From contig JAJEHX010000042.1 of assembly GCA_022823465.1 (NCBI GenBank), forward strand, positions 18,047 through 82,046: a stretch of DNA of 64,000 nt, given 5' to 3'. Below the pieces are notes generated by a model. The model had not been told where the DNA came from. It made no database searches and saw nothing but the letters and a program-made list of their open reading frames with translations. The position numbers and the translations under genes were made by a program. The stretch is from Candidatus Latescibacterota bacterium. Lineage in GTDB: Bacteria > JAAXHH01. This document shows positions 28,583 through 46,143 of the stretch, one piece after another. The number at the start of each line of letters is the position of its first letter. The first letter of the stretch is position 1.

Positions 28583-28699
28583 ACCCATCGCATGACCGAC
28601 GTTGGGCTGAAGTTGAACCTATATTGGTCCGACGTTGAACCTACTTGAACGATCTTTTCGGCCCGCTTGAATCAGCACCGATCCGAAACGGAATCCGCC

Positions 28700-30160
28700 A
28701 TGTACAAGTTCCAGTGGTACCAGTCGATCTACGACAATTTCCCGAAAATCGCCGAAGAAGCCCGGAAGTACGGCGAAGAGATCGGCACCCTGAAGTTGAA
28801 CAAGGATATCGGCCTGTACGCCGGCAGCTCGGCGCGGCCCGGCAACCTGCCCGACTATGTGCTGAACGCGATCGTGGACTCCAACCGGGGCGGCAAGACC
28901 TACCCGGTCCGGGTGATCGAGGACGAACTCCGGGAAGTCGTCAAGGACGTCTACGGCGACGAGTACGACGCGGTGGCCGCCAATACCTGCGAAGCCCTGC
29001 TGCGACTCACGCTCGAGACCCTTTGCGCGCCGCCCTCCATGCGCCACGGCGACATCTACCGCGGCCGCGTGCTCATGCCCTACGGGGAGGATTACGAATG
29101 GATCGGCGGCTATGGCCGGGCCTTCCCGCCGAGGTATAAGAACCTCCTCGTGGACCGGACCATCGCCGGCGGCGAACTGGGCATCGAGAACAAGAGCCTG
29201 GCGAACCTCGAGATGCTCTACGTCCGCATGGCCGGCGCGAAGTACGATCCTCACGGGATCCGGTACAATCCCACCTCGCTGCTCACCGAAGTCGACGTGG
29301 ACGGCACCATCGAAAACGTGAAGAAGGCCGCCGAACGGAACGCGTCTCTGCTCACGGGCGTCGCCACGGTGGGATACGACACGCCTAGTTACGGGCTCGG
29401 CGAACAGGACGAGAACGGCGCGCCGGTCCTGCTGAAGAAACTTGCCGACGTGGCCCGGGACTACGATGTCCCATACATCGTCGACACAGGAGGTTCGATT
29501 CCCATTGTCGGCATGGATCCCCGGGACATCGACTGCGACATCATCACCTACAGCATGGACAAGCCGGGCCGAGCGCCCGCGTCGGGACTGCTGATCGGAA
29601 AGGAAGAGATCATCAACCCGGTTCGCAAGGGCATGTGCCTGGGCGGCCAGCGATATGGCGAGCTATCCTCCCACGGTAAGGCCGTATATACTTTCAGCGA
29701 TCCGGGCCGGGACACCCTGGTGGGTTTGACCGCCTACCTGAAAGTCCTGCGCGACCGGCCCCGCCTGGTCACGGACCCCGTAGACCGGTTCCACGAAATC
29801 ATCGTAGAGGAATTCGCGCAGATGAAGCCCGCGCGCTTCCGTGACGACCTGATCTTCACGAAGACCTATCAACTCGGGGGCACCGAACTCAACTACGAAC
29901 GCACGTGGAAGGACGGCGCCTTCGGCATCCCGATCTTCAACCTGGAAGACCTGTGGGCCAACACCAACCCCATCGTGCTCGCCCAGGAGCACATGGGCGT
30001 CGAACCCGCCACGATCTACAGCGGCAAGATGTTTCTCGGACCCGGCCTGGGGACATTGGACCAGGAAGGCAACCTGATCGAGGAATACGCCGTCCTTGGC
30101 GCGAAGACCCTGGTCAAGGCCGTGGAAACAGTCTGTCGGTATGCGGGACTGGGGGATTGA
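28700..30160 (+). CDS. SelA-like PLP-dependent enzyme family protein
   Basis: YSMDKPGRAPASGLLIGKEEII aligns with the SelA/DgaE PLP-lysine motif (S-x-D-K-x-x-G-x-P-x-x-G-x-I-x-G-K-x-E-x-I). A TTG start at 28667 is also possible. Confidence 0.55.
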   Translation: MYKFQWYQSIYDNFPKIAEEARKYGEEIGTLKLNKDIGLYAGSSARPGNLPDYVLNAIVDSNRGGKTYPVRVIEDELREVVKDVYGDEYDAVAANTCEALLRLTLETLCAPPSMRHGDIYRGRVLMPYGEDYEWIGGYGRAFPPRYKNLLVDRTIAGGELGIENKSLANLEMLYVRMAGAKYDPHGIRYNPTSLLTEVDVDGTIENVKKAAERNASLLTGVATVGYDTPSYGLGEQDENGAPVLLKKLADVARDYDVPYIVDTGGSIPIVGMDPRDIDCDIITYSMDKPGRAPASGLLIGKEEIINPVRKGMCLGGQRYGELSSHGKAVYTFSDPGRDTLVGLTAYLKVLRDRPRLVTDPVDRFHEIIVEEFAQMKPARFRDDLIFTKTYQLGGTELNYERTWKDGAFGIPIFNLEDLWANTNPIVLAQEHMGVEPATIYSGKMFLGPGLGTLDQEGNLIEEYAVLGAKTLVKAVETVCRYAGLGD

Positions 30161-30189
30161 CGGACCGCTCGCTGTAACAACAAAACCCT

Positions 30190-30222
30190 TGCATGTGATA
30201 TTATAATGTGATATCATATGTC
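30190..30222. promoter_or_regulatory. Palindrome/direct-repeat operator candidate upstream of hicB
   Basis: atgtgatat-tata-atgtgatatcat includes the 8-bp perfect palindrome tgatatca and a duplicated atgtgatat half-site, within an AT-rich -35/-10-like context. Confidence 0.3.
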
Positions 30223-30270
30223 ATGAACAGTCGTCAACGTAAGATCCTCCCTGAAGGTGGGAAATCTGCC

Positions 30271-30603
30271 ATGAAACCCATGCGATACAAGGGATATCCC
30301 GCACGAATAGAATACAGCGACGAGGATGGATGTTTCGTCGGTCGCGTGGCTGGTATTCGCGACATTATCACGTTTCACGGAGAGAGCGTCGGAGAAGTTC
30401 GCGAGGCGTTCGAAGAGGCCCTTGATTTCTACCTGGACAGTTGTAACGAACGGGACGAGCCGCCGAACAAGCCATATTCGGGGAAACTCCTGTTGCGAAT
30501 TGATCCGGAAATCCACGCGGCGGTGGCCGAGGCGGCCGAAGTCAACGGCGTGAGTATTAATCGGTGGATGGAAGAAAGGTTGATTGAGGCGGTGAGCGAA
30601 TGA
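30271..30603 (+). CDS. hicB: HicB-family type II antitoxin (no adjacent hicA)
   Basis: N-terminal RNase-H-like HicB fold (YKGYPARIEYSDEDGCFVGRVAGI). C-terminal YSGKLLLRIDPEIHAAVAEAAEVNGVSINRWMEERL ribbon-helix-helix/HicB_lk motif. Confidence 0.7.
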   Translation: MKPMRYKGYPARIEYSDEDGCFVGRVAGIRDIITFHGESVGEVREAFEEALDFYLDSCNERDEPPNKPYSGKLLLRIDPEIHAAVAEAAEVNGVSINRWMEERLIEAVSE

Positions 30604-30619
30604 CGAACGCGTTCCATGC

Positions 30620-31249
30620 TCAATCTTGGGAGATCCATGCAGGAGGAGGCCAGGCACCTACATCCTGTTGCAAGTTGCTTAACAGAGCGCCTATCGATCT
30701 TGTTAGTTTTCGAAAAGACCGCGACCTTCGATATGCATCCGACATTGAGAACAATGCACTTAATGCGGGCTGGTCTGTAGTTTCAATGTAACTTCTACCT
30801 GCTTGCATTCTTGCTTCGAGTTGCTCCTTTGCCCCCAGTGGTTCTTCAGGAGACGGGTGAGATTCGGCGTCGCTAAGAATACCTCTACGTCCTCTGATCG
30901 ATTCTATAGTAGCCAGAAACCAAGCCTCATACTCTCGATGTGCTAGTATGACTTCACACGGAATACCACCGGCAGATGCAGTTGCCCATGCTCGGACTGC
31001 GGGTCCCAACTCCGCAGGGCAATCAGTATCGCCGTCGAAAAGAATGAGAATCGCACGGCAATTTTGTTTCGAGAGCGCTAACCGCACCGCCTTTTGAACG
31101 TCAAATTCGCGAACGAGTTCGTGGCGCCGCCGCCGTATCGGGCGTCCAACGCCGATTGTCGATCTGCCGGCTTCCGCAAGAAGACGGCGCAACAGTACTG
31201 GAAAAGCTACTACGTCCCCGTGACCTTCTACGATAGGCTGGATGTTCAA
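30620..31249 (-). CDS. DUF4276-like TOPRIM-motif protein (predicted nuclease partner of upstream ATPase)
   Basis: TTG start overlapping the ATPase stop (TTGA). N-terminal IVEG (conserved TOPRIM Glu). ILILFDGDTDCP (DxDxD TOPRIM motif). About 209 aa. Confidence 0.65.
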   Translation of the reverse strand: MNIQPIVEGHGDVVAFPVLLRRLLAEAGRSTIGVGRPIRRRRHELVREFDVQKAVRLALSKQNCRAILILFDGDTDCPAELGPAVRAWATASAGGIPCEVILAHREYEAWFLATIESIRGRRGILSDAESHPSPEEPLGAKEQLEARMQAGRSYIETTDQPALSALFSMSDAYRRSRSFRKLTRSIGALLSNLQQDVGAWPPPAWISQD

Positions 31250-32478
31250 TGCGCGTTTCCCTCTGGAAACAACTCGTACTGGTACTTTATCTCGTCATCG
31301 AACAAATCCTCGGACATCGGTGTCAGTGCGTTTGATCTTAACAACTCTCCCGCCCCCATCAAGTGATCACACAGTGCCTGTCTTGAAGCTTGGGAAATCA
31401 CGTTTACTCGGGTCACGCCTTTACTCCAGGTTGCTATCCGCAGGTGTCGGTCTTCAATCCACTTAGCGTCCAAAACATCAGGACTGTGGGTTGTAACTAC
31501 TACTTGCATGAAGCGGGCGGCGTGCCTTAGTACATCGAGAATTGAGCCCAAAGCGCCCTGATGCATCGTGGCTTCGGGTTCCTCTATAACAAGAAGTGAA
31601 GGTTTTTGCGGCTGGAAAACGGCCGTGAGGAGCCCAAGTATACGTAGCGTTCCATCTGACATGTTAGAGGCTTCGAATCTCACAGGTTCCTTCTTGGCCC
31701 AGTCTTGCTTGAACTCTAACGTTAGCTTGTTACCATGCTTTTTGGGTTGAACACCAATAGTTCCAGGAACGATACTTTCGAGAACCTCACGTATTAGTTT
31801 CCAGTCATCCCGGGATTCGCGCTGGATTTCGCGCAACACGCTGGCCGCGTTACTACCATCCGAATGTAAACGCAAACCTCCGTCAGGATCCTGCATACCT
31901 CTCAAGGCAGTTGGCTCAATCCGGCATACACGCATTTCCGACAGGAATCTGGAAATGGATTTAAACCTTGCGTCGCCTCCGACAATCGGAAGAGCTAACG
32001 CGCTACGATCCATGACCAAATCTGAAACGTCTCCGAGTGTTAACCGACTCATCTTGGATTCCTTGGGTGCCAAATGGCGATCAAAGAGGTCGATCTGGCC
32101 ATCGGTCCTCTCCAAAGTACATCGCTCACGCACCACCTCGAAACCATAACTACCCCTGAGCGCCCGCAGTTCGAAGGCGTAATTCGCCAAGACCGTGTCA
32201 CTATCCAGGTTGTCTATTGTCACTGCCAGGCCCAAATTAGATGGACGACCCCTTGCAGAGCTCCTGTGGCCTACCGCTGGAAATCCGCCTCTGTGTTCGA
32301 GAACAGCTTGTAAAGGAGATGACATCGCTTCAGCCAAAAAAGCGAAAGCATCGGCAAAGTTACTCTTGCCAGAGCCATTCTGACCTACCAGAAAGGTCGG
32401 ATTGTCAAATTCCACAACATCCTTTTCAAAGCTTCGAAATCGGTGCAGTTTGAGTTTACGAAGTTTAGGATTCGACAT
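31246..32478 (-). CDS. ABC-type AAA ATPase (AAA_21/OLD-family-like)
   Basis: GQNGSGKSNF Walker A. LLVIEEPEATMH Walker B with the characteristic EEPE. VVTTHSP H-loop. Start at MSNPKLRKLKLHRF (32478) with GAGG RBS. Confidence 0.75.
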   Translation of the reverse strand: MSNPKLRKLKLHRFRSFEKDVVEFDNPTFLVGQNGSGKSNFADAFAFLAEAMSSPLQAVLEHRGGFPAVGHRSSARGRPSNLGLAVTIDNLDSDTVLANYAFELRALRGSYGFEVVRERCTLERTDGQIDLFDRHLAPKESKMSRLTLGDVSDLVMDRSALALPIVGGDARFKSISRFLSEMRVCRIEPTALRGMQDPDGGLRLHSDGSNAASVLREIQRESRDDWKLIREVLESIVPGTIGVQPKKHGNKLTLEFKQDWAKKEPVRFEASNMSDGTLRILGLLTAVFQPQKPSLLVIEEPEATMHQGALGSILDVLRHAARFMQVVVTTHSPDVLDAKWIEDRHLRIATWSKGVTRVNVISQASRQALCDHLMGAGELLRSNALTPMSEDLFDDEIKYQYELFPEGNAH

Positions 32479-32779
32479 CGTCGTACCTCGGGTCGACCAA
32501 GTGCTTTCCAGGGCGGCTGTCTGTTCTATTGCTGCTAGTCTATTTCGTCGATATCTGACGAGATTCATCGTATGGGAAGGGATAGATCAGGGCTGTTGGC
32601 CTGCCGTAGAGGAAAACCGGGAGGTGAGCAGCATCCCTATCCCGCCTGAAATAGAGGCCCGCCAGTGAGACGAAAGAAAACTGATTTCAGGATGCGCGTC
32701 AACCTGTACAGGAAAACACCATTGATGGAATTGGCAAAACCGAAGCTGTTAAAGTCATTTATTATTAAAGTCATCCGAC

Positions 32780-37876: not shown

Positions 37877-39436
37877 TTAGCCTTTCTTTGCCATTCTTCT
37901 TAGCCACTCGGACTCATCAACTGCCACACGACTCTGTGTCGTCGCAAAAGTCTGTGCGATTCGTTGGGCGTATTCAGCCTTGAGTTCGCCTCGCCACGTA
38001 TATTGTCTGTCACAGGTGTCTGTGAATTCGAAATTACCATCTGATCTGCTTCTTACCGCGATTATCGCACTATTGCACTCCGACGGCTTGAATTGCGGCA
38101 GAAACCAACCGGACGGATCAAGTCCAATACCCATTCGCTTGAATTCGTGATCGAGTTTGATGACGAGTTGCTCCTTCTCCTTCGTTGGTTCAACCAGCGG
38201 AAGAAAAAGGAACGAAGTCTCCTCGTCCAACCTTACACAATCACATCGTGGCCTCATGCATATCAAGTGCCGTTCATCACCATCCATCGTCGCCGTGACG
38301 ATAGATCCCATCCACAATGTTGGTGGTGGCGCATTAAAAACTGTCCGAAAGCTCATTATCCACGCCAACCGTTCGTCAAGGTCGACGATGTTACCACACG
38401 CAAAACCCGATGAGAGGCCCTTAAATGCATTCTTGGGCAATACGCGAGCCTCCTGTAGACCCTTCTTCGCCAACTTAACCGTCTCTTCCAGGTCAATCTC
38501 TTCATCTCCGAACCGAAATCCTTCACCCTTACGACGTATCCAGCCCTCCACCGCTTCCACCCCGGCCGGAGACTCCTCGGCGACGGCGTTGTCCATAAGA
38601 CCACGAAGTTCCTCAGCAACATGGTTTACGATCTGGCGTTCCGCATCTTCTGGATCGGAAAGACAGACTCTGTGTGCGAGAAACGCCGGGTCCAAATCCG
38701 CACTGAATCGATCCAATACCTTATGCTCGCCCTCTCGAACGGCAGTCAGCGAGGTTAGTGCAATGGAGGGAAGCAATCCCTCTGTCATTGCCGCGAAATC
38801 ACTGATCAGTAAATCGGGAAGATCCTCCTCCGCGACGCTCCGGTTTCTCAGTGGCGCTGCCAGATTCACTGCAGACTTTGCATAAATGACAACTCGACCG
38901 TGCCGATATGAGATTTCCGTCTTGTTTTCATTCGTAGACGGGTCGAGTTCCACCTCTTTTAGTTTAACGACAATATCATTGCAAATGTCCTCCAACCGAC
39001 CTTCACCAGTATAAATAGCCACGAGTCGAAGCGAGTTTCGATTATCTGCCTCATCGGTTAGCAGTTTTGACAGCAACGTCAGCGCATATTGAGGATCGTC
39101 CGCCTGCAATCGCCAATCCAAGACCACGATATCGGCTTGCCTCAGTGCATTTATCTCGGATTGCGTAGGCCCAACTACGCCGCAGATCACGCCGATTGTG
39201 GAGAACGAATCAGTTATTGATCCAGCATTAAGCGATTGTTCCAGCCTCGGGACAACCGGGATTTGATCTTCCTGACTAACGGGCCGAGTTTCCCGACCCG
39301 GCACCACCACCTCTGCCTTGGGTCCAACGTCACCGTCCAATTCCATATATGCTTTGTCGTCCACCACGACGGCTGTCCGTAGAAAGCGCTGAGCGAACAA
39401 GCGGTGGCGACGACGGATCTCTTCTTCCGATACCAT
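37877..39436 (-). CDS. Receiver (REC)-like domain protein with ~330-aa C-terminal domain of unknown function
   Basis: AVVVDDK (acidic pocket), ADIVVLDWRL (phospho-acceptor Asp position), LVAIYT (conserved Thr) and VVIYAKS (Lys). A GGAG RBS lies 8 nt upstream. Translationally adjacent (10 bp) to the hybrid kinase gene. Confidence 0.55.
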   Translation of the reverse strand: MVSEEEIRRRHRLFAQRFLRTAVVVDDKAYMELDGDVGPKAEVVVPGRETRPVSQEDQIPVVPRLEQSLNAGSITDSFSTIGVICGVVGPTQSEINALRQADIVVLDWRLQADDPQYALTLLSKLLTDEADNRNSLRLVAIYTGEGRLEDICNDIVVKLKEVELDPSTNENKTEISYRHGRVVIYAKSAVNLAAPLRNRSVAEEDLPDLLISDFAAMTEGLLPSIALTSLTAVREGEHKVLDRFSADLDPAFLAHRVCLSDPEDAERQIVNHVAEELRGLMDNAVAEESPAGVEAVEGWIRRKGEGFRFGDEEIDLEETVKLAKKGLQEARVLPKNAFKGLSSGFACGNIVDLDERLAWIMSFRTVFNAPPPTLWMGSIVTATMDGDERHLICMRPRCDCVRLDEETSFLFLPLVEPTKEKEQLVIKLDHEFKRMGIGLDPSGWFLPQFKPSECNSAIIAVRSRSDGNFEFTDTCDRQYTWRGELKAEYAQRIAQTFATTQSRVAVDESEWLRRMAKKG

Positions 39437-39445
39437 CCTGTACTC

Positions 39446-42400
39446 CTATGATTCGTCCATTGGCACGATACCGAAAGTCGCGCCTACGTCTCCTACTATC
39501 AATTGTAGATCGAACCCTACCCGATGCAAAGTTTCACGTCCGATGTGTAATCCCATGCCACGACCGCCTGGTTTTCGGCTAAAACCGTATTCGAAAATCG
39601 CCTCCCGGTCACGAACATTGACTCCGGGGCCGTTATCCGCGACGAGCAATGAGCCGTCGTGCTCATCGAGTTCAATGCGCCGGTCTAATTGTGGATTCTG
39701 CTGTGATAGCCAGAAGATCGCGTTGTCTACCAAGTTTACAAACACAGGATAGAAGCTCGACGGAAAGCCTATAACCCTTGCGTTTGCGAAAGCCTTGGTC
39801 GCCGTCAACGTTACGTTATGACGCGACATACGAGCATTGAACAGTTCTTTAAGGAAATCTCGCACTTCGGAACCACGAATTTCCACCTGTTTTCTGTAGA
39901 GACGGCGCTGCAACGGTGTGAACAGTGTCAGGTAACCGTCAAGGTGATCGAAACTTGCTCGTATGCTCTCATACAACTTTGCCAATCCTTCATTCGCATC
40001 AGCCCACGCCCTCAGTTTTCTAAGTCCATTCCGAACTGACCTTATGGTACCAGCAAACTCGTGGTTTATTATTTCAATAGCCATTCCCAACTGCGCCAAC
40101 TGAGCATCGGCTTCCGCTTCCTCCTCCAGCAAGAGATTGCGTTGTTCAATGGCCACCAACTGATCGGCTATGGAACTCTCCCCCGTGACGTCTATGGACT
40201 GTAGTTGCTCCAATATCGAGCGTAACAATTCGCTTTGTTCTTCTGCAATCTTTTGGATTCTTTTCTCCAATTCATCCCTGGTTTCGACGAAAACCTCATC
40301 GGGCATCTCTGCGACGTCTACCCGTTGAAATTCACTCAGCACTGCCCGCAATTCCATCTCGACAGCTTTGAGTGATTGCCCGGCCGCACCCCTTGCAGCC
40401 GAGGCGACATTTTCCGCTTCCGTCCTAACAGCGCGGCTTGATTCTCCGGTAGTTTTGCGGACTTCCTTCCCTAGAGTCTCCAAAGCTTCTTCCGTTCTTT
40501 CACGGCGATCAAGTGCCAATTCCGCCTTTCTGGCTTCTTCACCGATCAGATCCTCAATCAGTTCCCGTGTTGGTCGAAACACATGTTCTTGAAGCGAAGC
40601 GAACTCGGTGTTGTACACGTTCCAATCGCGGAGGACAGCCTTGCTCAATCCGATACGAGGACGCGATACGCGATACTTTGCCTCCAACTCCCTAATATCC
40701 GCGTGCACTCGGCGTTCGAGGTTGAGGACCTCGCGTGCTGCCAATCGACTATCCGCGATGCCGCACGCAGACTGCAACTTTTCCGCGACGCCGTCCGTTA
40801 ATGCCATCGCTTCCTCTTGTGGCATATTGTTCGCGATTTTATCAAAAAACTCGTTCAGACGTTCCTGAAATACCCTCTTTTTTTCCGAAACCTGTCTTTC
40901 GCGTCGCTTCCTCGCTTCATCCTCTTTGGATAGTTCGTCTTTTCTCGTGTCGAACGTTTCAGCATGCACACCATCGGATCTGAAAAAGTCCGCAGCAATC
41001 TGCAGAAGGAAGTTTTGTAGTATTGACCGAAACTGGCGATAGGCTTTGTTTTCCTGGAATCCTTCTCGGCCCGCCTTTTCTCGCAGATCCCCATTCCTGG
41101 TAGCGTCGATCTCCACCGCTCCGAACATCTTGCGGTGTGAAAAATAATAATAATACGCGCTTTTTGTTCGCCTGAACTCGATGTCCAACCAATCAAATTC
41201 GGTATCGCCATATGGCAGTATTCGAATCCCGTTTCGATATATGTACAATCCTCCTATTTGTTCGGTCTTGTATGCCAATCTGGCGTGTTCCTCATTGGGG
41301 ATCGTCGAATACTTGGTTTCCCCCTCGAAGGCTGCAAAGTCGATCGAGAACTGGCCGCAGTTCGTACGTGCTCCTCGTCCACCACCCCAAGGTATGACGT
41401 GATCGGCTGTCGTCTCCCCATAGATCGAGATTTCGCCCATAAACTGACCGAACTCGTCGAACGTCCCTCGGATGCGGTGATCCGCATTCTGAAACTCCTC
41501 TGGAGTAAAAAACTCGTCCTCGCCGATCAGATCTACTGCCACCTCGTCCGTCTTGTGGTCCCGGAACGCGGTATGGATCACGCTATGAGATCCGGGCGTC
41601 ATGGAGTTACTGAATCCGAGCAGTGCTTTTTTCAAAGGCGTCGCCTTCTTCAATGCGGCGGTCTTGCTCGCTGTCGGGTCGCCGTCTATATCTTCTACCA
41701 ACAATGTCGAGGTTGGCTTGATGATGAATTGCGTACCGGAGCCGTCACTGCGAAGGGACGGCTCCCCGAGGTAGGAGTCAATCACTTGCGGATCGATATA
41801 AAAAAGATCCAACTCTCGACCAAGCTTTTTCAAGAACCGATTCTCGACACGCAGGCCGACCCTTTCGGCATTCTCACGGAACTCTCCCACCATCTCGGCC
41901 ACATCATGCGCTGAAGGTAGCGTACCCGGCGCGAATGACCGAAGTGGGATTTCAACTTCGTCCAAGTCGATTCCTGGCCACTCGAATATGCCCCAATTCA
42001 GGAATGCCGCAGTAAGATCGGAAGCTTCGCCGTCGGTCTTCGGTCGAGTGAGTACCAGAAGTTGTGGCCCTATAGTCGAAATGGCGAGTCTCCCGATTCC
42101 CTTCTCGCCGAGCATAGGGCGAGGTTTTGTATCCGGGTCAGGCGGCGGATTTGCGGTCGGGTCGAGTTTGTTCTCCGTACCGATAGTTAGCCACCGGGCT
42201 ACAAAGTTGTCGTAACTCATCCCGACGCCATCGTCCCTCAAAACGAACAGGCCGTCCGAGCGATAGTAATCGATCTCTACACGGACAGCATAGGCATCGT
42301 GGGCGTTCTTGAACAACTCGCTGATTGCCGTGGGCATACCGGCTATTTGTTGCCTACCGAGCATGTCGAGTGTTCGAGCACTTGTCTTGAATTTCGGCAT
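39446..42400 (-). CDS. Hybrid protein: N-terminal GHKL (Hsp90/MutL/MORC-like Bergerat) ATPase + long coiled coil + C-terminal histidine kinase (HisKA + HATPase_c)
   Basis: N-terminus: ELFKNAHDA (motif I) and RDDGVGMS (motif II). A roughly 450-aa charged coiled coil follows. C-terminus: INHEF H-box, NLVDNAI N-box, DNGPGV G1, IFEYGF F-box, GGRGMGLHI G2. The start ATG overlaps the dcm stop (TGATG). Confidence 0.7.
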   Translation of the reverse strand: MPKFKTSARTLDMLGRQQIAGMPTAISELFKNAHDAYAVRVEIDYYRSDGLFVLRDDGVGMSYDNFVARWLTIGTENKLDPTANPPPDPDTKPRPMLGEKGIGRLAISTIGPQLLVLTRPKTDGEASDLTAAFLNWGIFEWPGIDLDEVEIPLRSFAPGTLPSAHDVAEMVGEFRENAERVGLRVENRFLKKLGRELDLFYIDPQVIDSYLGEPSLRSDGSGTQFIIKPTSTLLVEDIDGDPTASKTAALKKATPLKKALLGFSNSMTPGSHSVIHTAFRDHKTDEVAVDLIGEDEFFTPEEFQNADHRIRGTFDEFGQFMGEISIYGETTADHVIPWGGGRGARTNCGQFSIDFAAFEGETKYSTIPNEEHARLAYKTEQIGGLYIYRNGIRILPYGDTEFDWLDIEFRRTKSAYYYYFSHRKMFGAVEIDATRNGDLREKAGREGFQENKAYRQFRSILQNFLLQIAADFFRSDGVHAETFDTRKDELSKEDEARKRRERQVSEKKRVFQERLNEFFDKIANNMPQEEAMALTDGVAEKLQSACGIADSRLAAREVLNLERRVHADIRELEAKYRVSRPRIGLSKAVLRDWNVYNTEFASLQEHVFRPTRELIEDLIGEEARKAELALDRRERTEEALETLGKEVRKTTGESSRAVRTEAENVASAARGAAGQSLKAVEMELRAVLSEFQRVDVAEMPDEVFVETRDELEKRIQKIAEEQSELLRSILEQLQSIDVTGESSIADQLVAIEQRNLLLEEEAEADAQLAQLGMAIEIINHEFAGTIRSVRNGLRKLRAWADANEGLAKLYESIRASFDHLDGYLTLFTPLQRRLYRKQVEIRGSEVRDFLKELFNARMSRHNVTLTATKAFANARVIGFPSSFYPVFVNLVDNAIFWLSQQNPQLDRRIELDEHDGSLLVADNGPGVNVRDREAIFEYGFSRKPGGRGMGLHIGRETLHRVGFDLQLIVGDVGATFGIVPMDES

Positions 42401-43482
42401 CAGGACAGCCTTCCCACATCCTTGAGATGCTCGATGAACTGTTGACCGATTAGCTTGGCCAGACGGACCGGTACTGCGTTTCCGATCTGCCTCGCCATAG
42501 ACGCCATGCTCCCATCAAACACGAAATCTTCCGGAAAAGTTTGTAAGCAAGCCGCTTCTCGAATACTGATCGCCCGATCCTGCTCAGGATGGCCAAAACG
42601 CCCGTTCGAATAGCTAATACACCGAGTAGTCAATCCCGAAGCAGGGGAGTCCCAGGCCATTCGGCCATACACATCGGAATACCCGGTAAAACCCTTGTGA
42701 CATTCGAGCTTTAGGTACTCCGGCCAGTCTCGTTCGCCTCCGCCTTCAGGCGTCGCTTTTATACGGTCGAGGTTTCGTTCAGAAAGATTTGCCGCTTTGT
42801 GATTAAGCACCTCTTCGTGCTCCTCGCCTGCGCGAATCGCCGGAAGATGGGAAATCCAGTCCCGAACCGTCGTGTAATTCTCTTTCGGTGTTCCAGGACC
42901 GTGCGTCTCATCGGGTATTGAAACAGCACCATGGCGGCTTCCTACAAGCACGAGTCGTCGTCGGCTTTGCGGTATACCGTACTTGGCTAGTAGGATGGGA
43001 CGATAGTCCACTTCATACCCTGCTTTATAGAGTCGGTTCAGAAAGTCACCAAAAGGTTGACTAGCGCTGTCTAACTTCTGCAACCCCGGTACGTTCTCCA
43101 CAAACACAAGGTCCGGTCGACAGCCTTCCACAAACCTGGCAAAGTGAGCAAGCAGCGGCACGCGCTCATCCTGGTCCAATCCAGGTCGCTTCGTGTTTTG
43201 CTTGCTGAATGGTTGACACGGTGCGCAACCGCTGAACAGCACCGGATTCGGTCGTTCCGCTTCTATCCGTTGGCGGATCATATCAACGCTAACCATGCGG
43301 ATATCTGCAAACTCGAAGCGGGCGTCGGGAAAGTTGGCTTGGAAACTCTCCCGAACATTCGCGTCATGATCTAGAGCGAACGAAATTTCCATGCCCGCAG
43401 CCCTAAATCCACAACTCGCGCCGCCACAACCAGCGAAAAAGTCATATACCTGAATGGCCATCGGGTCACCCCGGTGGGTCAC
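42400..43482 (-). CDS. dcm: DNA (cytosine-5)-methyltransferase
   Basis: FAGCGG (motif I), PCQPFS (motif IV catalytic Cys), ENV (motif VI), and the C-terminal target-recognition domain. Confidence 0.85.
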   Translation of the reverse strand: MTHRGDPMAIQVYDFFAGCGGASCGFRAAGMEISFALDHDANVRESFQANFPDARFEFADIRMVSVDMIRQRIEAERPNPVLFSGCAPCQPFSKQNTKRPGLDQDERVPLLAHFARFVEGCRPDLVFVENVPGLQKLDSASQPFGDFLNRLYKAGYEVDYRPILLAKYGIPQSRRRLVLVGSRHGAVSIPDETHGPGTPKENYTTVRDWISHLPAIRAGEEHEEVLNHKAANLSERNLDRIKATPEGGGERDWPEYLKLECHKGFTGYSDVYGRMAWDSPASGLTTRCISYSNGRFGHPEQDRAISIREAACLQTFPEDFVFDGSMASMARQIGNAVPVRLAKLIGQQFIEHLKDVGRLS

Positions 43483-43623
43483 ACTTGCTTATCGATGCCA
43501 AGTGCCGAATCATTGGCGCCGCACAGGATCGGGTCCAACTCCCGCCCAGTGCCACAAGGAACTGCGTCGATGTTTCCAGTCATTCAGTCGATTTTAGGTC
43601 CTTGATCTCGACAGGCGAGAGAC

Positions 43624-44058
43624 TCACCCACTCGCAAGATACCCTACTTTACACCGTATGAGTTTTGCCAGCCTGTGCTCCACTGCTGCTTCGTTTCTGG
43701 TCTCACACTGCCATATGACAAGAACCCGCCAGCCGAGTTTTATCAAAGCTGCTTCATGACGAGCATCGCGGTCTATGTTGGCAGCGAATTTCTCGGTCCA
43801 GAAGTCTTTCCGGGATTTCGGAGTGGACGCAAACCGACATCCCGCATGCCGATGCCAGAAGCATCCATGCACGAACACAGCCAGTCTATGTTTAGGAAGC
43901 ACTAGATCGGGACTTCCTGGAAGGTCCTTGCGGTGCAGACGAAAACGCAGGCCCATCCGATGAACGATGCGACGCACGGCAAGTTCCGGGGCCGTATTGC
44001 GAGTGCGAATCGCCGCCATCAATTCGCTACGCCGTTTGCGATCCATGATGTCGGTCAT
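43624..44058 (-). CDS. vsr: Very-short-patch repair endonuclease
   Basis: Conserved Vsr motifs (…TAPELAVRR…HRKDLPGSPDLVLPKHRLAVFVHGCFWHRH…). 144 aa. Confidence 0.85.
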   Translation of the reverse strand: MTDIMDRKRRSELMAAIRTRNTAPELAVRRIVHRMGLRFRLHRKDLPGSPDLVLPKHRLAVFVHGCFWHRHAGCRFASTPKSRKDFWTEKFAANIDRDARHEAALIKLGWRVLVIWQCETRNEAAVEHRLAKLIRCKVGYLASG

Positions 44059-44208: not shown

Positions 44209-46143
44209 CTAGATCCGGATCAGTTCCTTGACCAGGAGGTCGTTGATCCGGCCCGCGAAACCCACGGGATCGTCGAGCTTGGATCCCTCGGCCACCACGG
44301 CCTGCTCGTAAAGCAGGCGCCCGATGGACTCGACGCGGGCGTCCGCGTCGTCGCTGTCGTGGAGCTTTTGCAGGCCCTGGACCACAGGATGTCCGGCGTT
44401 GAGTTCCAGGATGCGCTTGGAGGCCTGAGCCTGGGCCCCGCCCTCGCCCATGCGTTGCATGAGCCGTTCCATGTGGGCGCTCATGGCGCCCTCGTCGGCC
44501 ACCAGGCAGGACGCGCTGTCCTTGAGACGCGTGGACAATCGGATATCCTGCACCTCCGATATCTTGCCCTTCAGGGTCTCGATCAGGGCCTTGAAGGTCT
44601 TTTCATCGTCCTCCGCCCTGGCCTTATCGGATTCGTCGGCCGTGATGTCGCCTTTGTCGGCCGCCTTGTACTTCTTCTCGCGGTACTCGGTCACCGACGA
44701 CATGACGAATTCGTCGATGGGATCCGTCATGAAGAGGACGTTCCAGCCACGGTCCCGGAAGATCTCCAGGTACGGCGTCCTTTCGAGCATGCCGCGATGC
44801 TCGCCGATCAGGTAGTAGATCTCCTCCTGGTCGGGCGGCATCTGGTCTACGTATTCATCCATGGAGATGAACTTCCCGGCCTCGGTGTTCATGGATTCGT
44901 ACACGGCGAGGGAGGTAAGGGCGTCCCGGTTCTCGAAGTCCTGCGCCATCCCTTCCTTGAGGATCAGCCCCAGTTCCCTGAAGAAATCCACGTACTTGTC
45001 GAACTCGTCCTTCTTCATCTCCTCCAGCACGGAGAAGATCCGCTTGACGATGTTCTTCCGGATACGGTCGAGTATGGGATTCTGCTGCAGGATCTCGCGG
45101 GAGACGTTGAGGGGCAGATCTGAGCAGTCCACCACGCCCTTGATGAAGCGCAGGTAGGGCGGCAGCAGCTCCTCGCAGTTTTCCATGATCTGGACCCGCT
45201 GCACGTACAGTCTGGGGCCGACCTTGGGATCGCCGAACATCATGTCGAAGGGCCGCTTCGCCGGGATGAAGAGCAGTACCTTGAATTCGGTCAGTCCCTC
45301 GGCCGTGTAGTGGATCACCCTGGCCGGATCGCCGTAATCGTGGGAGATCTGGCGGTAGAAGGCGTTGTACTCGTCGTCCTCGATCTCGTCCTTCGATCGG
45401 AGCCAGAGCGCCTTCATGGAGTTGAGCGTCTCTTCCCGGACCACCGCCTCCGTCTTATCATCCTCCCCCTCGACCGGTTCGTGTCGCTCCACGTCCATGA
45501 CGACCGGGTACTCGATAAAGTCGGAGAACTCCTTGACCACCTGCCGGAGCCGCCATTCCTCCAGAAACTCCTTTTCGTCCTCCTTGAGATGGAGCGTGAC
45601 ATCGGTCCCGTGCGTCTCCTTTTCCACCATCTTCACGGTGAACTCGCCCTCTCCTGCGGAGACCCAGCGGACGCCCTGGTCTTTCGGGTCGCCGGCCAGA
45701 CGGGAGACCACCGTGACCCGGTCGGCCACCATGAAGGCAGAATAGAAACCCACGCCGAACTGGCCGATCAACTCGGGGCGGCTGGCTTCGTCGGCCTGCT
45801 GCAGGGTCTCGAGGAACGCCCTGGTACCCGACTTCGCGATGGTGCCCAGCTGATCGACGATGGTTTCTCGGGACATCCCGGTGCCGTTGTCGGAAACCGT
45901 CAGGGTGTTCTTGTCCTTGTCGGCGATCAGCTTGATCTTCCACTCGGTGTCGCCGTCCAGCAAGTCGCTGTTGTTGATGGAATTGAAACGGATCTTGTTG
46001 ATGGCGTCGCTGGCGTTGCTGATCAACTCGCGGAGGAAGATCTCCTTGTTGGAATAGAGCGAATGGGTGATCAGATGAAGGATCTGCCTCAACTCGCTCT
46101 TGAATTCCATGGTTTCGGTGGATGCGGCAGGTGCTTCGGACAT
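44209..46143 (-). CDS. htpG: Molecular chaperone HtpG (Hsp90)
   Basis: IHSLYSNKEIFLRELISNASDA N-terminal Bergerat motif. Full-length 644 aa with middle and C-terminal dimerisation domains. Confidence 0.9.
   Translation of the reverse strand: MSEAPAASTETMEFKSELRQILHLITHSLYSNKEIFLRELISNASDAINKIRFNSINNSDLLDGDTEWKIKLIADKDKNTLTVSDNGTGMSRETIVDQLGTIAKSGTRAFLETLQQADEASRPELIGQFGVGFYSAFMVADRVTVVSRLAGDPKDQGVRWVSAGEGEFTVKMVEKETHGTDVTLHLKEDEKEFLEEWRLRQVVKEFSDFIEYPVVMDVERHEPVEGEDDKTEAVVREETLNSMKALWLRSKDEIEDDEYNAFYRQISHDYGDPARVIHYTAEGLTEFKVLLFIPAKRPFDMMFGDPKVGPRLYVQRVQIMENCEELLPPYLRFIKGVVDCSDLPLNVSREILQQNPILDRIRKNIVKRIFSVLEEMKKDEFDKYVDFFRELGLILKEGMAQDFENRDALTSLAVYESMNTEAGKFISMDEYVDQMPPDQEEIYYLIGEHRGMLERTPYLEIFRDRGWNVLFMTDPIDEFVMSSVTEYREKKYKAADKGDITADESDKARAEDDEKTFKALIETLKGKISEVQDIRLSTRLKDSASCLVADEGAMSAHMERLMQRMGEGGAQAQASKRILELNAGHPVVQGLQKLHDSDDADARVESIGRLLYEQAVVAEGSKLDDPVGFAGRINDLLVKELIRI

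Follow-up and report, generated by a model that had tools for sequence, protein, structure and literature searches.

Organization of the Locus

The window, i.e., the whole stretch of 64,000 nucleotides of a Candidatus Latescibacterota genome that was analyzed, contains on its minus strand two adjacent, co-oriented genes that share four nucleotides (TTGA). The upstream gene encodes an ABC-type ATPase and the downstream gene a small protein of the DUF4276 family. They are designated here HEC-01A and HEC-01B, after the PADLOC models they match. The features of the pair are as follows.

31246-32478, minus strand: HEC-01A, ABC-type (SMC/Rad50/OLD-like) ATPase of 410 aa (PADLOC, Pfam, gene calls, homologs)
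30620-31249, minus strand: HEC-01B, DUF4276 protein of 209 aa with a TTG start (PADLOC, Pfam, homologs, AlphaFold)
31246-31249, minus strand: TTGA junction, in which the TTG start of HEC-01B overlaps the TGA stop of HEC-01A (sequence)
32486-32489, minus strand: GAGG, putative Shine-Dalgarno-like sequence 7 nt before the ATG of HEC-01A (sequence)
31259-31263, minus strand: GAGGG, putative Shine-Dalgarno-like sequence within the 3' end of HEC-01A, 9 nt before the TTG (sequence)

The longest open reading frame for the ATPase in the ORF list (31246-32568, minus strand) would yield 440 aa from its first ATG. The start of the 410-aa form, the ATG at 32478-32476 on the minus strand, is the one chosen by gene callers on the identical public contig, and homologs of the ATPase begin at the matching position. 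The junction reads gcgcaTTGAacatc, with TTG at 31249-31247 and TGA at 31248-31246, and the overlap of the stop codon of the 410-aa ATPase with the start codon of the 209-aa protein, as given in a preliminary description of the locus, is thereby borne out. The two genes are translationally coupled. No Rfam match was found between 29500 and 33500, and a scan for sigma-70 promoters and terminators gave a result at or below chance level.

The ATPase HEC-01A

The Walker A, signature-like, Walker B and H-loop motifs of an ABC-type ATPase are all intact in HEC-01A. In profile searches, it matches the PADLOC model PDLC04178 for HEC-01A with E = 5e-103 (343 bits), and the alignment extends over residues 32-423 of the 440-aa ORF and positions 5-388 of the 399 in the profile. 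Pfam matches are to AAA_21 (E = 5.9e-28) and AAA_15 (E = 2.7e-16), and likeness to Rad50 and SMC proteins is limited to ~45 residues around Walker A. The motifs are listed below in 410-aa numbering.

32362-32385, minus strand: Walker A, G32-Q-N-G-S-G-K38-S39
31645-31659, minus strand: putative ABC signature-like motif, S274-D-G-T-L278, so labeled from its placement before Walker B
31573-31596, minus strand: Walker B, LLVIEEPE, residues 295-302
31483-31494, minus strand: H-loop, T329-T-H-S332

Among 79 sequences, conservation is at least 98% for G32, N34, G35, G37, K38 and S39 of Walker A, for S274, G276, T277 and L278 of the signature-like motif, for E299, E300, P301 and E302 of Walker B, and for T329, T330 and S332 of the H-loop, in which H331 is conserved in at least 95%. 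The three motifs by which the ATPase had originally been recognized, i.e., GQNGSGKSNF, EEPE (within LLVIEEPE) and TTHSP, are all present.

The Small Protein HEC-01B

HEC-01B matches the PADLOC model PDLC04196 with E = 5e-61 (204 bits), residues 1-191 being aligned with positions 1-193 of 197, and this is its sole significant match among the NCBIfam and PADLOC models. The DUF4276 profile of Pfam (PF14103), proposed earlier as a check, is matched with 45.8 bits (E = 1.1e-11), above its gathering cut-off of 30.2, and residues 7-184 are aligned to positions 1-189 of 192. Homologs number 2861, and the best 120 of these 2861 are ~209 aa in length. An AlphaFold model (pLDDT 75, pTM 0.72) consists of a beta-alpha core at residues 2-116 and a helical tail. 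Four elements stand out as a candidate active site.

31226-31228, minus strand: E8 in IVEG, where strand 1 ends, candidate Toprim glutamate (conservation; model strand 2-8)
31022-31036, minus strand: D72-G-D74-T-D76, acidic motif where strand 3 ends (conservation; model strand 64-73)
30926-30934, minus strand: E106-Y-E108, opening helix 106-116, candidate ligands of the second metal (conservation)
30827-30829, minus strand: K141, lysine of the helical region and candidate equivalent of K562 of OLD (conservation)

Six positions (V7, G9, D72, E106, K141 and Q160) do not vary among 61 diverse representatives of the family, in which E8, D74 and E108 reach at least 90% conservation. E8 and D72 are also invariant in an alignment of the close subclade; D74, conserved family-wide, is yet variable there, whereas D76 is invariant in the close subclade only. 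The candidate Toprim glutamate in IVEG is present as claimed, and so is the FDGDTD motif that had been read as the Toprim DxD, but the aspartates conserved deep in the family are those of D72-x-D74, D76 being a feature of the close subclade.

In the model, the motifs are placed as in a Toprim core, with E8 following strand 2-8 and D72-x-D74 where strand 64-73 ends. In the literature, DUF4276 and HEC-01B were placed in the Toprim superfamily by two independent structural analyses, and the metal-binding site of HEC-01 was reported to be conserved relative to that of BpOLD (bioRxiv 10.1101/2024.01.29.577857). On the basis of Pfam membership, motif placement and these two analyses, HEC-01B is predicted to be a Toprim-type protein, and a metal-dependent nuclease. 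Judged by order and spacing, E8, D72-x-D74, E106-x-E108 and K141 are candidate equivalents of the residues that form the two-metal site in OLD nucleases of class 2, in which the role of K562 has been described (PMC6755086); E106-x-E108 would correspond to T506/E508 of BpOLD, a candidate pairing drawn from order and spacing rather than from superposition.

Foldseek searches of the model against the PDB and BFVD returned nothing at E < 1e-3, and hmmsearch of PDB sequences with both alignments of the small protein (close subclade and family-wide) detected no relatives, the only hits being a designed repeat protein and odorant-binding proteins. Scores of the same two alignments against P2 Old in hhalign were insignificant. 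A search of a large database with the C-terminal 250 aa of P2 Old gave four proteins, too few for a profile of the OLD Toprim domain, and tblastn against phages found only P2 itself. PHROGs holds no family for the small protein.

The Islet and Its Neighbors

30161-32779, no strand: low-GC islet and variable defence hotspot, between a gene for a 486/497-aa protein and an NTP_transferase (MurU-like) gene (GC content)
30271-30603, plus strand: orphan hicB, 110 aa, convergent with the pair, 16 nt from the stop of the small gene (Pfam HicB, E = 1e-18)

The islet of ~2.6 kb has a GC content of ~51% overall and is bordered by DNA of 62-67%. The pair had been noted to be AT-richer than the genes around it; consistently, GC is 0.50-0.54 over ~30000-32750 vs. 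0.58-0.68 in the flanks. A check of the islet boundaries found no direct repeats and no tRNA gene close by, and the islet contains no integrase. In the window, the neighbors of the pair are the NTP_transferase gene, hicB and a gene without a Pfam match, with no embedding among Hma genes. The last of these neighbors, at 28667-30160, had been labeled SelA-like; it has no Pfam match at E ≤ 0.001, which leaves the label tentative. The MurU-like label of the NTP_transferase gene is plausible; that gene comes after a gene for an APH-family kinase.

According to the ORF list, there is no room for a hicA gene beside hicB. The earlier remark that an orphan hicB lies next to the pair is correct, but it does not extend to an association with the system: among 80 related loci, HicB is found near the pair only in four syntenic relatives, at the same site, and in one of these loci (L004) three genes intervene. 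HicB was therefore rejected as a system component, being confined to the four closest relatives that have one chromosomal site in common, and it belongs to this site, or islet, and not to HEC-01.

Distribution and Genomic Context

In 79 of the 80 related loci, which come from many phyla, an ATPase homolog is located directly upstream of the small gene. The genes overlap by 4 nt (NTGA) in 49 of the 80 and by 7 nt in six, and the sequences of HEC-01A and HEC-01B diverge in parallel. Across many phyla, the two genes have been passed on and mobilized as one unit. They occur patchily and are shared between phyla at 50-70% identity. Clustering of neighboring genes revealed only lineage-specific synteny and HmaC, and a third conserved gene was rejected.

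The pair is often located inside or beside methylation-based defence systems. Hma genes are found near it in ~13-17 of the 80 loci, including one (L060) in which it is inserted between HmaB and HmaC, and in another (L015) a Type I REase and an NsnB-like ATPase are nearby. In the majority of the loci (e.g., L008), none of the Hma or MjaI-type genes searched for are near the pair. Four close relatives among the Latescibacterota carry the pair at the same site as in the window, adjoining an MjaI-type restriction-modification (R-M) system that is absent from the window, and IS3 elements and other genes are variably present there. The DNA of the pair is 94.6% identical, vs. ~85% for the flanks. In the genome of the window, the site is a small, long-standing defence hotspot from which the MjaI-type R-M system was lost, or in which it was never present.

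Identity of the Pair

The pair is an ordinary, free-standing HEC-01 locus. HEC-01 is a candidate anti-phage module made up of two genes, for which an OLD-like nuclease mechanism is proposed as the probable one. [quoted passage not shown] The preliminary description had correctly read a split ATPase and TOPRIM architecture of a defence type, with AAA_21 and DUF4276 now above their cut-offs and the genes coupled. Its suggestion that the pair was novel did not hold: the PADLOC run it had proposed, with a match to a known system named beforehand as evidence against novelty, gave full-length matches to both HEC-01 models. Since HEC-01 is an already named and published system in PADLOC, the pair is not novel.

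Proposed Mechanism and Alternatives

HEC-01B may be in effect a free-standing OLD C-terminal region, composed of a Toprim core and a helical domain. In the proposed two-metal nuclease site, E8 and D72-x-D74 would bind metal A and E106-x-E108 metal B, with K141 as the catalytic lysine. HEC-01A would serve as an ATP-dependent sensor and regulator and would restrain or license the nuclease pending an infection cue, upon which HEC-01B would nick nucleic acid or degrade it. DNA is rated a likelier target, in the manner of OLD and GajA, than tRNA, in the manner of AriB of PARIS, and the outcome could be direct interference or abortive infection. Two published tests, both with copies other than that in the window, bear on function. 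One HEC-01 representative, overexpressed with IPTG, gave E. coli B protection from one or more of the phages T4, T5 and T7, with no fold-reduction given, whereas the representative of Payne et al. conferred no protection (bioRxiv 10.1101/2024.01.29.577857).

A somewhat unlikely alternative is that the pair works like PARIS, with an ATPase oligomer sequestering the Toprim protein and freeing it when a phage protein is sensed, leading to cleavage of host tRNA and translational arrest, i.e., abortive infection. The split two-gene layout is that of AriA and AriB, the ATPase partially matches AriA models (1.8e-26), and the nuclease is small and stand-alone and hence could be released.

Less probably, the pair would not defend by itself but could be the effector or sensor of an adjoining methylase-based system (Hma, R-M or MADS-like), in which case the partnerless copy in the window would be inert or decaying. 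The position between HmaB and HmaC, the Hma parts near a minority of the loci and the MjaI-type system adjoining the pair in all four close relatives fit such a role, as do the need for Mad3 and Mad4 within MADS and the lack of defence by stand-alone HEC-01 in one study. Against it, most loci have none of the searched-for genes nearby, a HEC-01 cluster alone protected E. coli in the other study, both ORFs in the window are intact with all conserved residues kept, and the DNA of the pair is better conserved than its flanks. A related idea, which we regard as speculative and improbable, is that HEC-01 is more than a simple analog of OLD or PARIS, namely a portable cartridge of a free OLD C-terminal region plus a sensor ATPase, able to plug into systems based on methylation (Hma, MjaI-type R-M) and to exploit the self/non-self marks they set, maybe with a DUF4276-specific chemistry in which, for example, the near-invariant Cys of a D-x-D-x-D-C-P motif might be involved. 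Such plugging-in would explain the conflicting stand-alone tests.

It is quite unlikely that HEC-01B is a Rossmann-like regulator of the ATPase that binds nucleotides or other ligands and has no nuclease activity, as complete or nearly complete conservation is seen for five acidic residues and a lysine, which are placed as in the OLD two-metal site, and both published structural analyses favor Toprim. A housekeeping complex for DNA repair or maintenance like SbcCD, Rad50-Mre11 or RecF is hardly credible: the N-terminus of the ATPase resembles Rad50, SMC and RecF heads, and pairing an ABC ATPase with a nuclease is SbcCD logic too, but the Rad50/SMC likeness is restricted to the short stretch around Walker A, and the patchy, phylum-crossing distribution, the low-GC islet and the variable neighbors rich in R-M, Hma and IS elements all argue against it.

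Significance

As a known system, the pair has small discovery value, because running PADLOC on the contig would label it HEC-01. HEC-01 is widespread, yet it has no solved structure, and functional tests are in conflict. Its DUF4276 relatives form 2,756 clusters at 50% identity, and in cold-seep genomes HEC-01 is among the 12 most abundant system types. The residue map (E8, D72/D74, E106/E108 and K141 in HEC-01B; K38 and E299/E300 in the ATPase) offers concrete mutant targets for the OLD-like two-metal nuclease model. In the Latescibacterota loci, the pair persists in a small hotspot while R-M, IS and unknown cassettes turn over, which constitutes a natural experiment on the dependence of HEC-01 on an adjoining methylase system.

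Comparison With Known Systems

The PARIS or AbiL membership initially envisaged was not confirmed. PARIS (AriA/AriB; PMC11464382), a class 4 OLD system, likewise consists of two genes, for an AAA_15/21 ABC ATPase, probably the sensor, and a Toprim effector. Its effector, however, is of the DUF4435 rather than the DUF4276 type, and the match of the ATPase to AriA is partial and even at best (1.8e-26) far short of that to HEC-01A; membership of PARIS was rejected, the small protein having no AriB or DUF4435 match at E ≤ 1. AbiL (AbiLi/AbiLii) and Gabija (GajA) have the logic of an ABC ATPase plus Toprim in defence in common with the pair. AbiL was rejected with a partial match to AbiLi (5.4e-21) and none to AbiLii. 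The match to GajA (5.3e-13) is limited to the Walker A region, and GajA, unlike the split pair, is a fusion protein with GajB as helicase partner.

OLD nucleases (P2 Old, BpOLD and TsOLD; PMC6755086, PMC7049728) combine, in one polypeptide, an ATPase at the N-terminus with a TOPRIM_OLD domain at the C-terminus, and those of class 2 have a UvrD-like helicase partner, which the pair lacks. The ATPase matches the PADLOC Old model with 2.6e-16, but a canonical OLD nuclease of classes 1-3 was rejected, as the genes are separate and neither protein matches PF20469 (TOPRIM_OLD).

An AAA_21-type ATPase and a DUF4276-type Toprim protein also occur together within two validated defence systems, as Mad3/Mad4 of MADS (bioRxiv 10.1101/2023.03.30.534895) and in the NsnB/NsnC-DUF4276 variants of Menshen (PMC12065111). 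MADS was rejected: NCBIfam MAD3 gives 95.5 bits where its cut-off is 420, neither Mad4 nor any other NCBIfam model matches the small protein, and the other MADS genes, including the mandatory mad6-8, are absent from the window, where the flanking genes are housekeeping genes. For Menshen, the match of the ATPase to NsnB is 2.6e-24, vs. 5e-103 to HEC-01A, and the other Menshen genes are absent.

HEC-01 itself is matched by both proteins over the full length of its A and B models, with the same gene order and tight coupling. Embedding in Hma is how HEC-01 was discovered and is not required for its detection by PADLOC. Relatives of the exact subclade of the pair are located between HmaB and HmaC, whereas the copy in the window lies outside Hma, on its own within a small islet of the Latescibacterota genome.

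Structure and identity of the pair

The two coupled ORFs of the preliminary description were recovered in the ORF listing and in the sequence at their junction, and all motifs quoted for them are present.

31246..32568, minus strand: ATPase ORF, 440 aa counted from the first ATG
32478-32476, minus strand: ATG start of the 410-aa ATPase, the form described previously
30620..31249, minus strand: small-protein ORF, 209 aa, with a TTG start
30271-30603, plus strand: HicB antitoxin-like gene (Pfam HicB, 1e-18)

The 410-aa start has GAGG 7 nt upstream, as read from the sequence, was also chosen by gene callers on the identical public contig, an ENA metagenome scaffold, and coincides with the position where the alignment of homologs begins. 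At the junction (...gcgcaTTGAacatc...), the TTG of the small gene (31249-31247), with GAGGG 9 nt upstream, overlaps the TGA of the ATPase gene (31248-31246). The low-GC island is also real, with a GC content of 0.50-0.54 across about 30000-32750 vs. 0.58-0.68 on both flanks; a search at this islet revealed no direct repeats, tRNA or integrase marking its boundaries.

The ATPase was assigned to Pfam AAA_21 (5.9e-28) and also to AAA_15, and the small protein, in the profile check proposed for it, to DUF4276 (45.8 bits; cut-off 30.2). Given these matches and the tight coupling, the architecture had been correctly read as a split ATPase and Toprim pair of the defence type. Both proteins match PADLOC families over their full length, i.e., HEC-01A (PDLC04178, 5e-103) and HEC-01B (PDLC04196, 5e-61), which is decisive for their identity: the pair is an ordinary member of the already catalogued candidate system HEC-01. 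Since that system has been described by Payne et al., the pair is a known, named system, and the suggested novelty, which an existing name was to exclude, is lost. The proposed kinship with PARIS or AbiL did not hold either, as the ATPase matches AriA (1.8e-26) and AbiLi (5.4e-21) far more weakly than HEC-01A, and the small protein, for which HEC-01B is the sole significant PADLOC match, lacks similarity to AriB. The scores for NsnB (2.6e-24), mad3 (4.3e-22), Old (2.6e-16), and GajA (5.3e-13) are similarly far weaker. On these grounds, membership of PARIS, AbiL, MADS, and canonical OLD was rejected. In NCBIfam, the ATPase reached 95.5 bits against MAD3, where the cut-off is 420, and the profile search gave no match for the small protein.

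[quoted passage not shown] Protection of E. coli B by one HEC-01 cluster, against one or more of T4, T5, and T7, is reported from IPTG-induced spot assays for which the fold-reduction is not given (2026 Nature Communications, PMC12881386). A 2026 Microbiome paper still handled HEC-01 as an unvalidated candidate.

Distribution and genomic context

The small protein has 2861 homologs (E ≤ 1e-3), of which the best 120 are 61-95% identical to it and about 209 aa long; in an exhaustive search, its relatives formed 2756 clusters at 50% identity. A sample of 80 loci was drawn from named MAGs of Latescibacterota, Caldilineaceae, Vicinamibacterales, Gammaproteobacteria, Planctomycetota, Verrucomicrobia, Elusimicrobia, and others. 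An ATPase homolog is located directly upstream of the small gene on the same strand in 79 of them, the lone exception being a truncated small gene, and the two genes overlap by 4 nt (NTGA) in 49 loci and by 7 nt in six. The pair is translationally coupled and co-inherited, and it occurs in defence-island contexts. Neighbour clustering over the 80 loci found no third gene universal to the pair.

One sampled locus, L015 (4885-6720), is a multi-system defence island: just upstream of the pair it has a Type I restriction enzyme and an NsnB-like ABC ATPase (PADLOC NsnB 1.9e-48), the latter followed by a 156-aa ORF. Homologs with 50-70% identity occur in MAGs of at least 10 phyla. Many of the MAG names (SB0661, CO36xxx, COS, RHO, Plut) resemble those of marine sponge or coral microbiome bins, which, read from the names alone, suggests horizontal spread within such communities.

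Among named genomes, the one nearest to the window is a Candidatus Latescibacterota MAG. In four relatives (L009, L010, L011, which is the same Latescibacterota MAG as L004, and L012), the pair occupies the same site, between the MurU-like NTP_transferase gene and a 486-aa gene. In all four, the genes just upstream of the pair encode a MjaI-type restriction enzyme and an N6/N4 methylase, the methylase region in L010 being broken by two IS3-type (rve) transposases; the window carries only about 290 unrelated bp at this position. The pair's DNA (30620-32497) is 94.6% identical to that of L011, vs. 84.6-87% for the flanking core genes, which is consistent with either more recent exchange or stronger constraint. 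The window's counterpart of the 486-aa gene (28667-30160, plus strand), previously called SelA-like, has no Pfam match at E ≤ 0.001, and public contigs record no Pfam family for it.

The hicB gene, previously noted beside the pair, is convergent with HEC-01B across a 16-nt gap. It has no hicA partner in the window, the upstream gene being only about 110 bp away, and in the syntenic relatives it is likewise conserved beside the 486-aa gene. Of the 80 loci, only these four have a HicB gene close to the pair, and in L004 three unannotated genes (176, 169, and 300 aa; no Pfam or PADLOC match) intervene; hicB is therefore a feature of the site rather than of the system. In L004/L011, some 150 bp from the 3' end of hicB (window 30444-30593) occur twice, on either side of this insert (L004 10656-12964), which suggests that cassettes have been exchanged there by recombination.

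Other low-GC regions of the window

Downstream of nucleotide 37877, and bounded by htpG (44209-46143) on one side and an SBP_bac_5 gene on the other, the window has a further insertion of low GC content (~0.51) and about 6 kb (37877-44058, minus strand), which L004 lacks. Another low-GC patch (10034-14545; 0.46-0.54) also holds several small unannotated ORFs.

43624-44058, minus strand: Vsr
42400-43482, minus strand: C-5 cytosine methylase
39446-42400, minus strand: 984-aa HATPase_c_3, HEF_HK, and HATPase_c protein (weak PADLOC REase_II match, 8.7e-9)
37877-39436, minus strand: 519-aa Response_reg_2 protein
10552-11871: DUF7790 protein
13442-14545: sigma-54 activator (PADLOC RtcR_PspF2, 1e-105)

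The insertion resembles a Dcm/Vsr cassette; its GHKL/receiver pair is unusual and may be a restriction component. The sigma-54 activator matches RtcR_PspF2 only from profile position 148 and thus is without a CARF-like N-terminus.

Conserved residues and predicted fold

Both the ABC ATPase and the DUF4276 protein are intact. Among 79 ATPase sequences, the residues of Walker A (G32, N34, G35, G37, K38, S39), the signature-like motif (S274, G276, T277, L278), Walker B (E299, E300, P301, E302), and the H-loop (T329, T330, H331, S332) are at least 95-98% conserved. In 61 diverse representatives of HEC-01B, V7, G9, D72, E106, K141, and Q160 are invariant, and E8, D74, C77, E108, W110, S178, and F179 are conserved in at least 90%. 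FDGDTD had been read as the TOPRIM DxD; given these frequencies, the canonical DxD is D72-x-D74, which is conserved family-wide, whereas D76 is conserved in the close subclade only. C64, C77, and C98 are invariant in that subclade, and C77, which directly follows the acidic loop in a D-x-D-x-D-C-P motif, reaches at least 90% conservation in the full DUF4276 sample; we know of no comparable cysteine in canonical Toprim motifs.

In the AlphaFold model of HEC-01B (pLDDT 75, pTM 0.72), strands 2-8, 38-40, 64-73, and 98-104 alternate with helices and are followed by a helical tail; E8 thus follows the first strand and the DxD the third. Foldseek of the model against PDB and BFVD gave no match below E = 1e-3; the top BFVD matches, above that value, include an RloB-like protein and fragments named "AAA domain". 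The profile search found no sequence relative in PDB, and hhalign against P2 Old was insignificant, its best stretch aligning IVEG with LVEG of Old at 394-402. At the level of motifs, HEC-01B qualifies as a Toprim protein; otherwise, the assignment leans on two published analyses, the description of HEC-01 by Payne et al. and a study that assigned DUF4276 to the Toprim superfamily and tied it to Mad4 (PMC12065111). DUF4276 is also present in the tree of AAA15/21 systems in the PARIS paper (PMC11464382).

Possible mechanism and comparison with OLD

HEC-01A probably acts as an ATP-dependent sensor or regulator, and HEC-01B as a two-metal nuclease effector of the type of the OLD C-terminal region. 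Its substrate is somewhat more probably DNA than anything else, because both the layout of the residues and the best structural match to a Toprim domain point to OLD, and similarity to AriB is lacking; tRNA, as expected of a PARIS-like tRNase, is a less likely target. Less probably, the pair could be an accessory of methylation systems. About 13-17 of the 80 loci have parts of Hma within 8 kb of it. By neighbour clustering, an HmaC homolog is the next gene downstream in nine, and by tblastn one is present inside the 8-kb flanks in 11; L060 is arranged as HmaA, HmaB, a 319-aa gene, HEC-01A, HEC-01B, and HmaC. Other, unlikely rivals to the nuclease effector are a housekeeping repair role for the pair and a non-nuclease regulatory role for HEC-01B.

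In class 2 OLD, the C-terminal region of 205 residues comprises a Toprim and a helical domain; metal A is bound by E400, D455, and D457, metal B by E404, T506, and E508, of which T506 and E508 are at the start of the first helix of the helical domain, and K562 in that domain is the catalytic lysine (PMC6755086). In the HEC-01B model, E106/E108 are likewise at the start of a helix (106-116). In both order and spacing, E8, D72/D74, E106/E108, and K141 parallel the metal and lysine residues of class 2 OLD, and from this layout, rather than from superposition, we infer that the two sets are probably equivalent.
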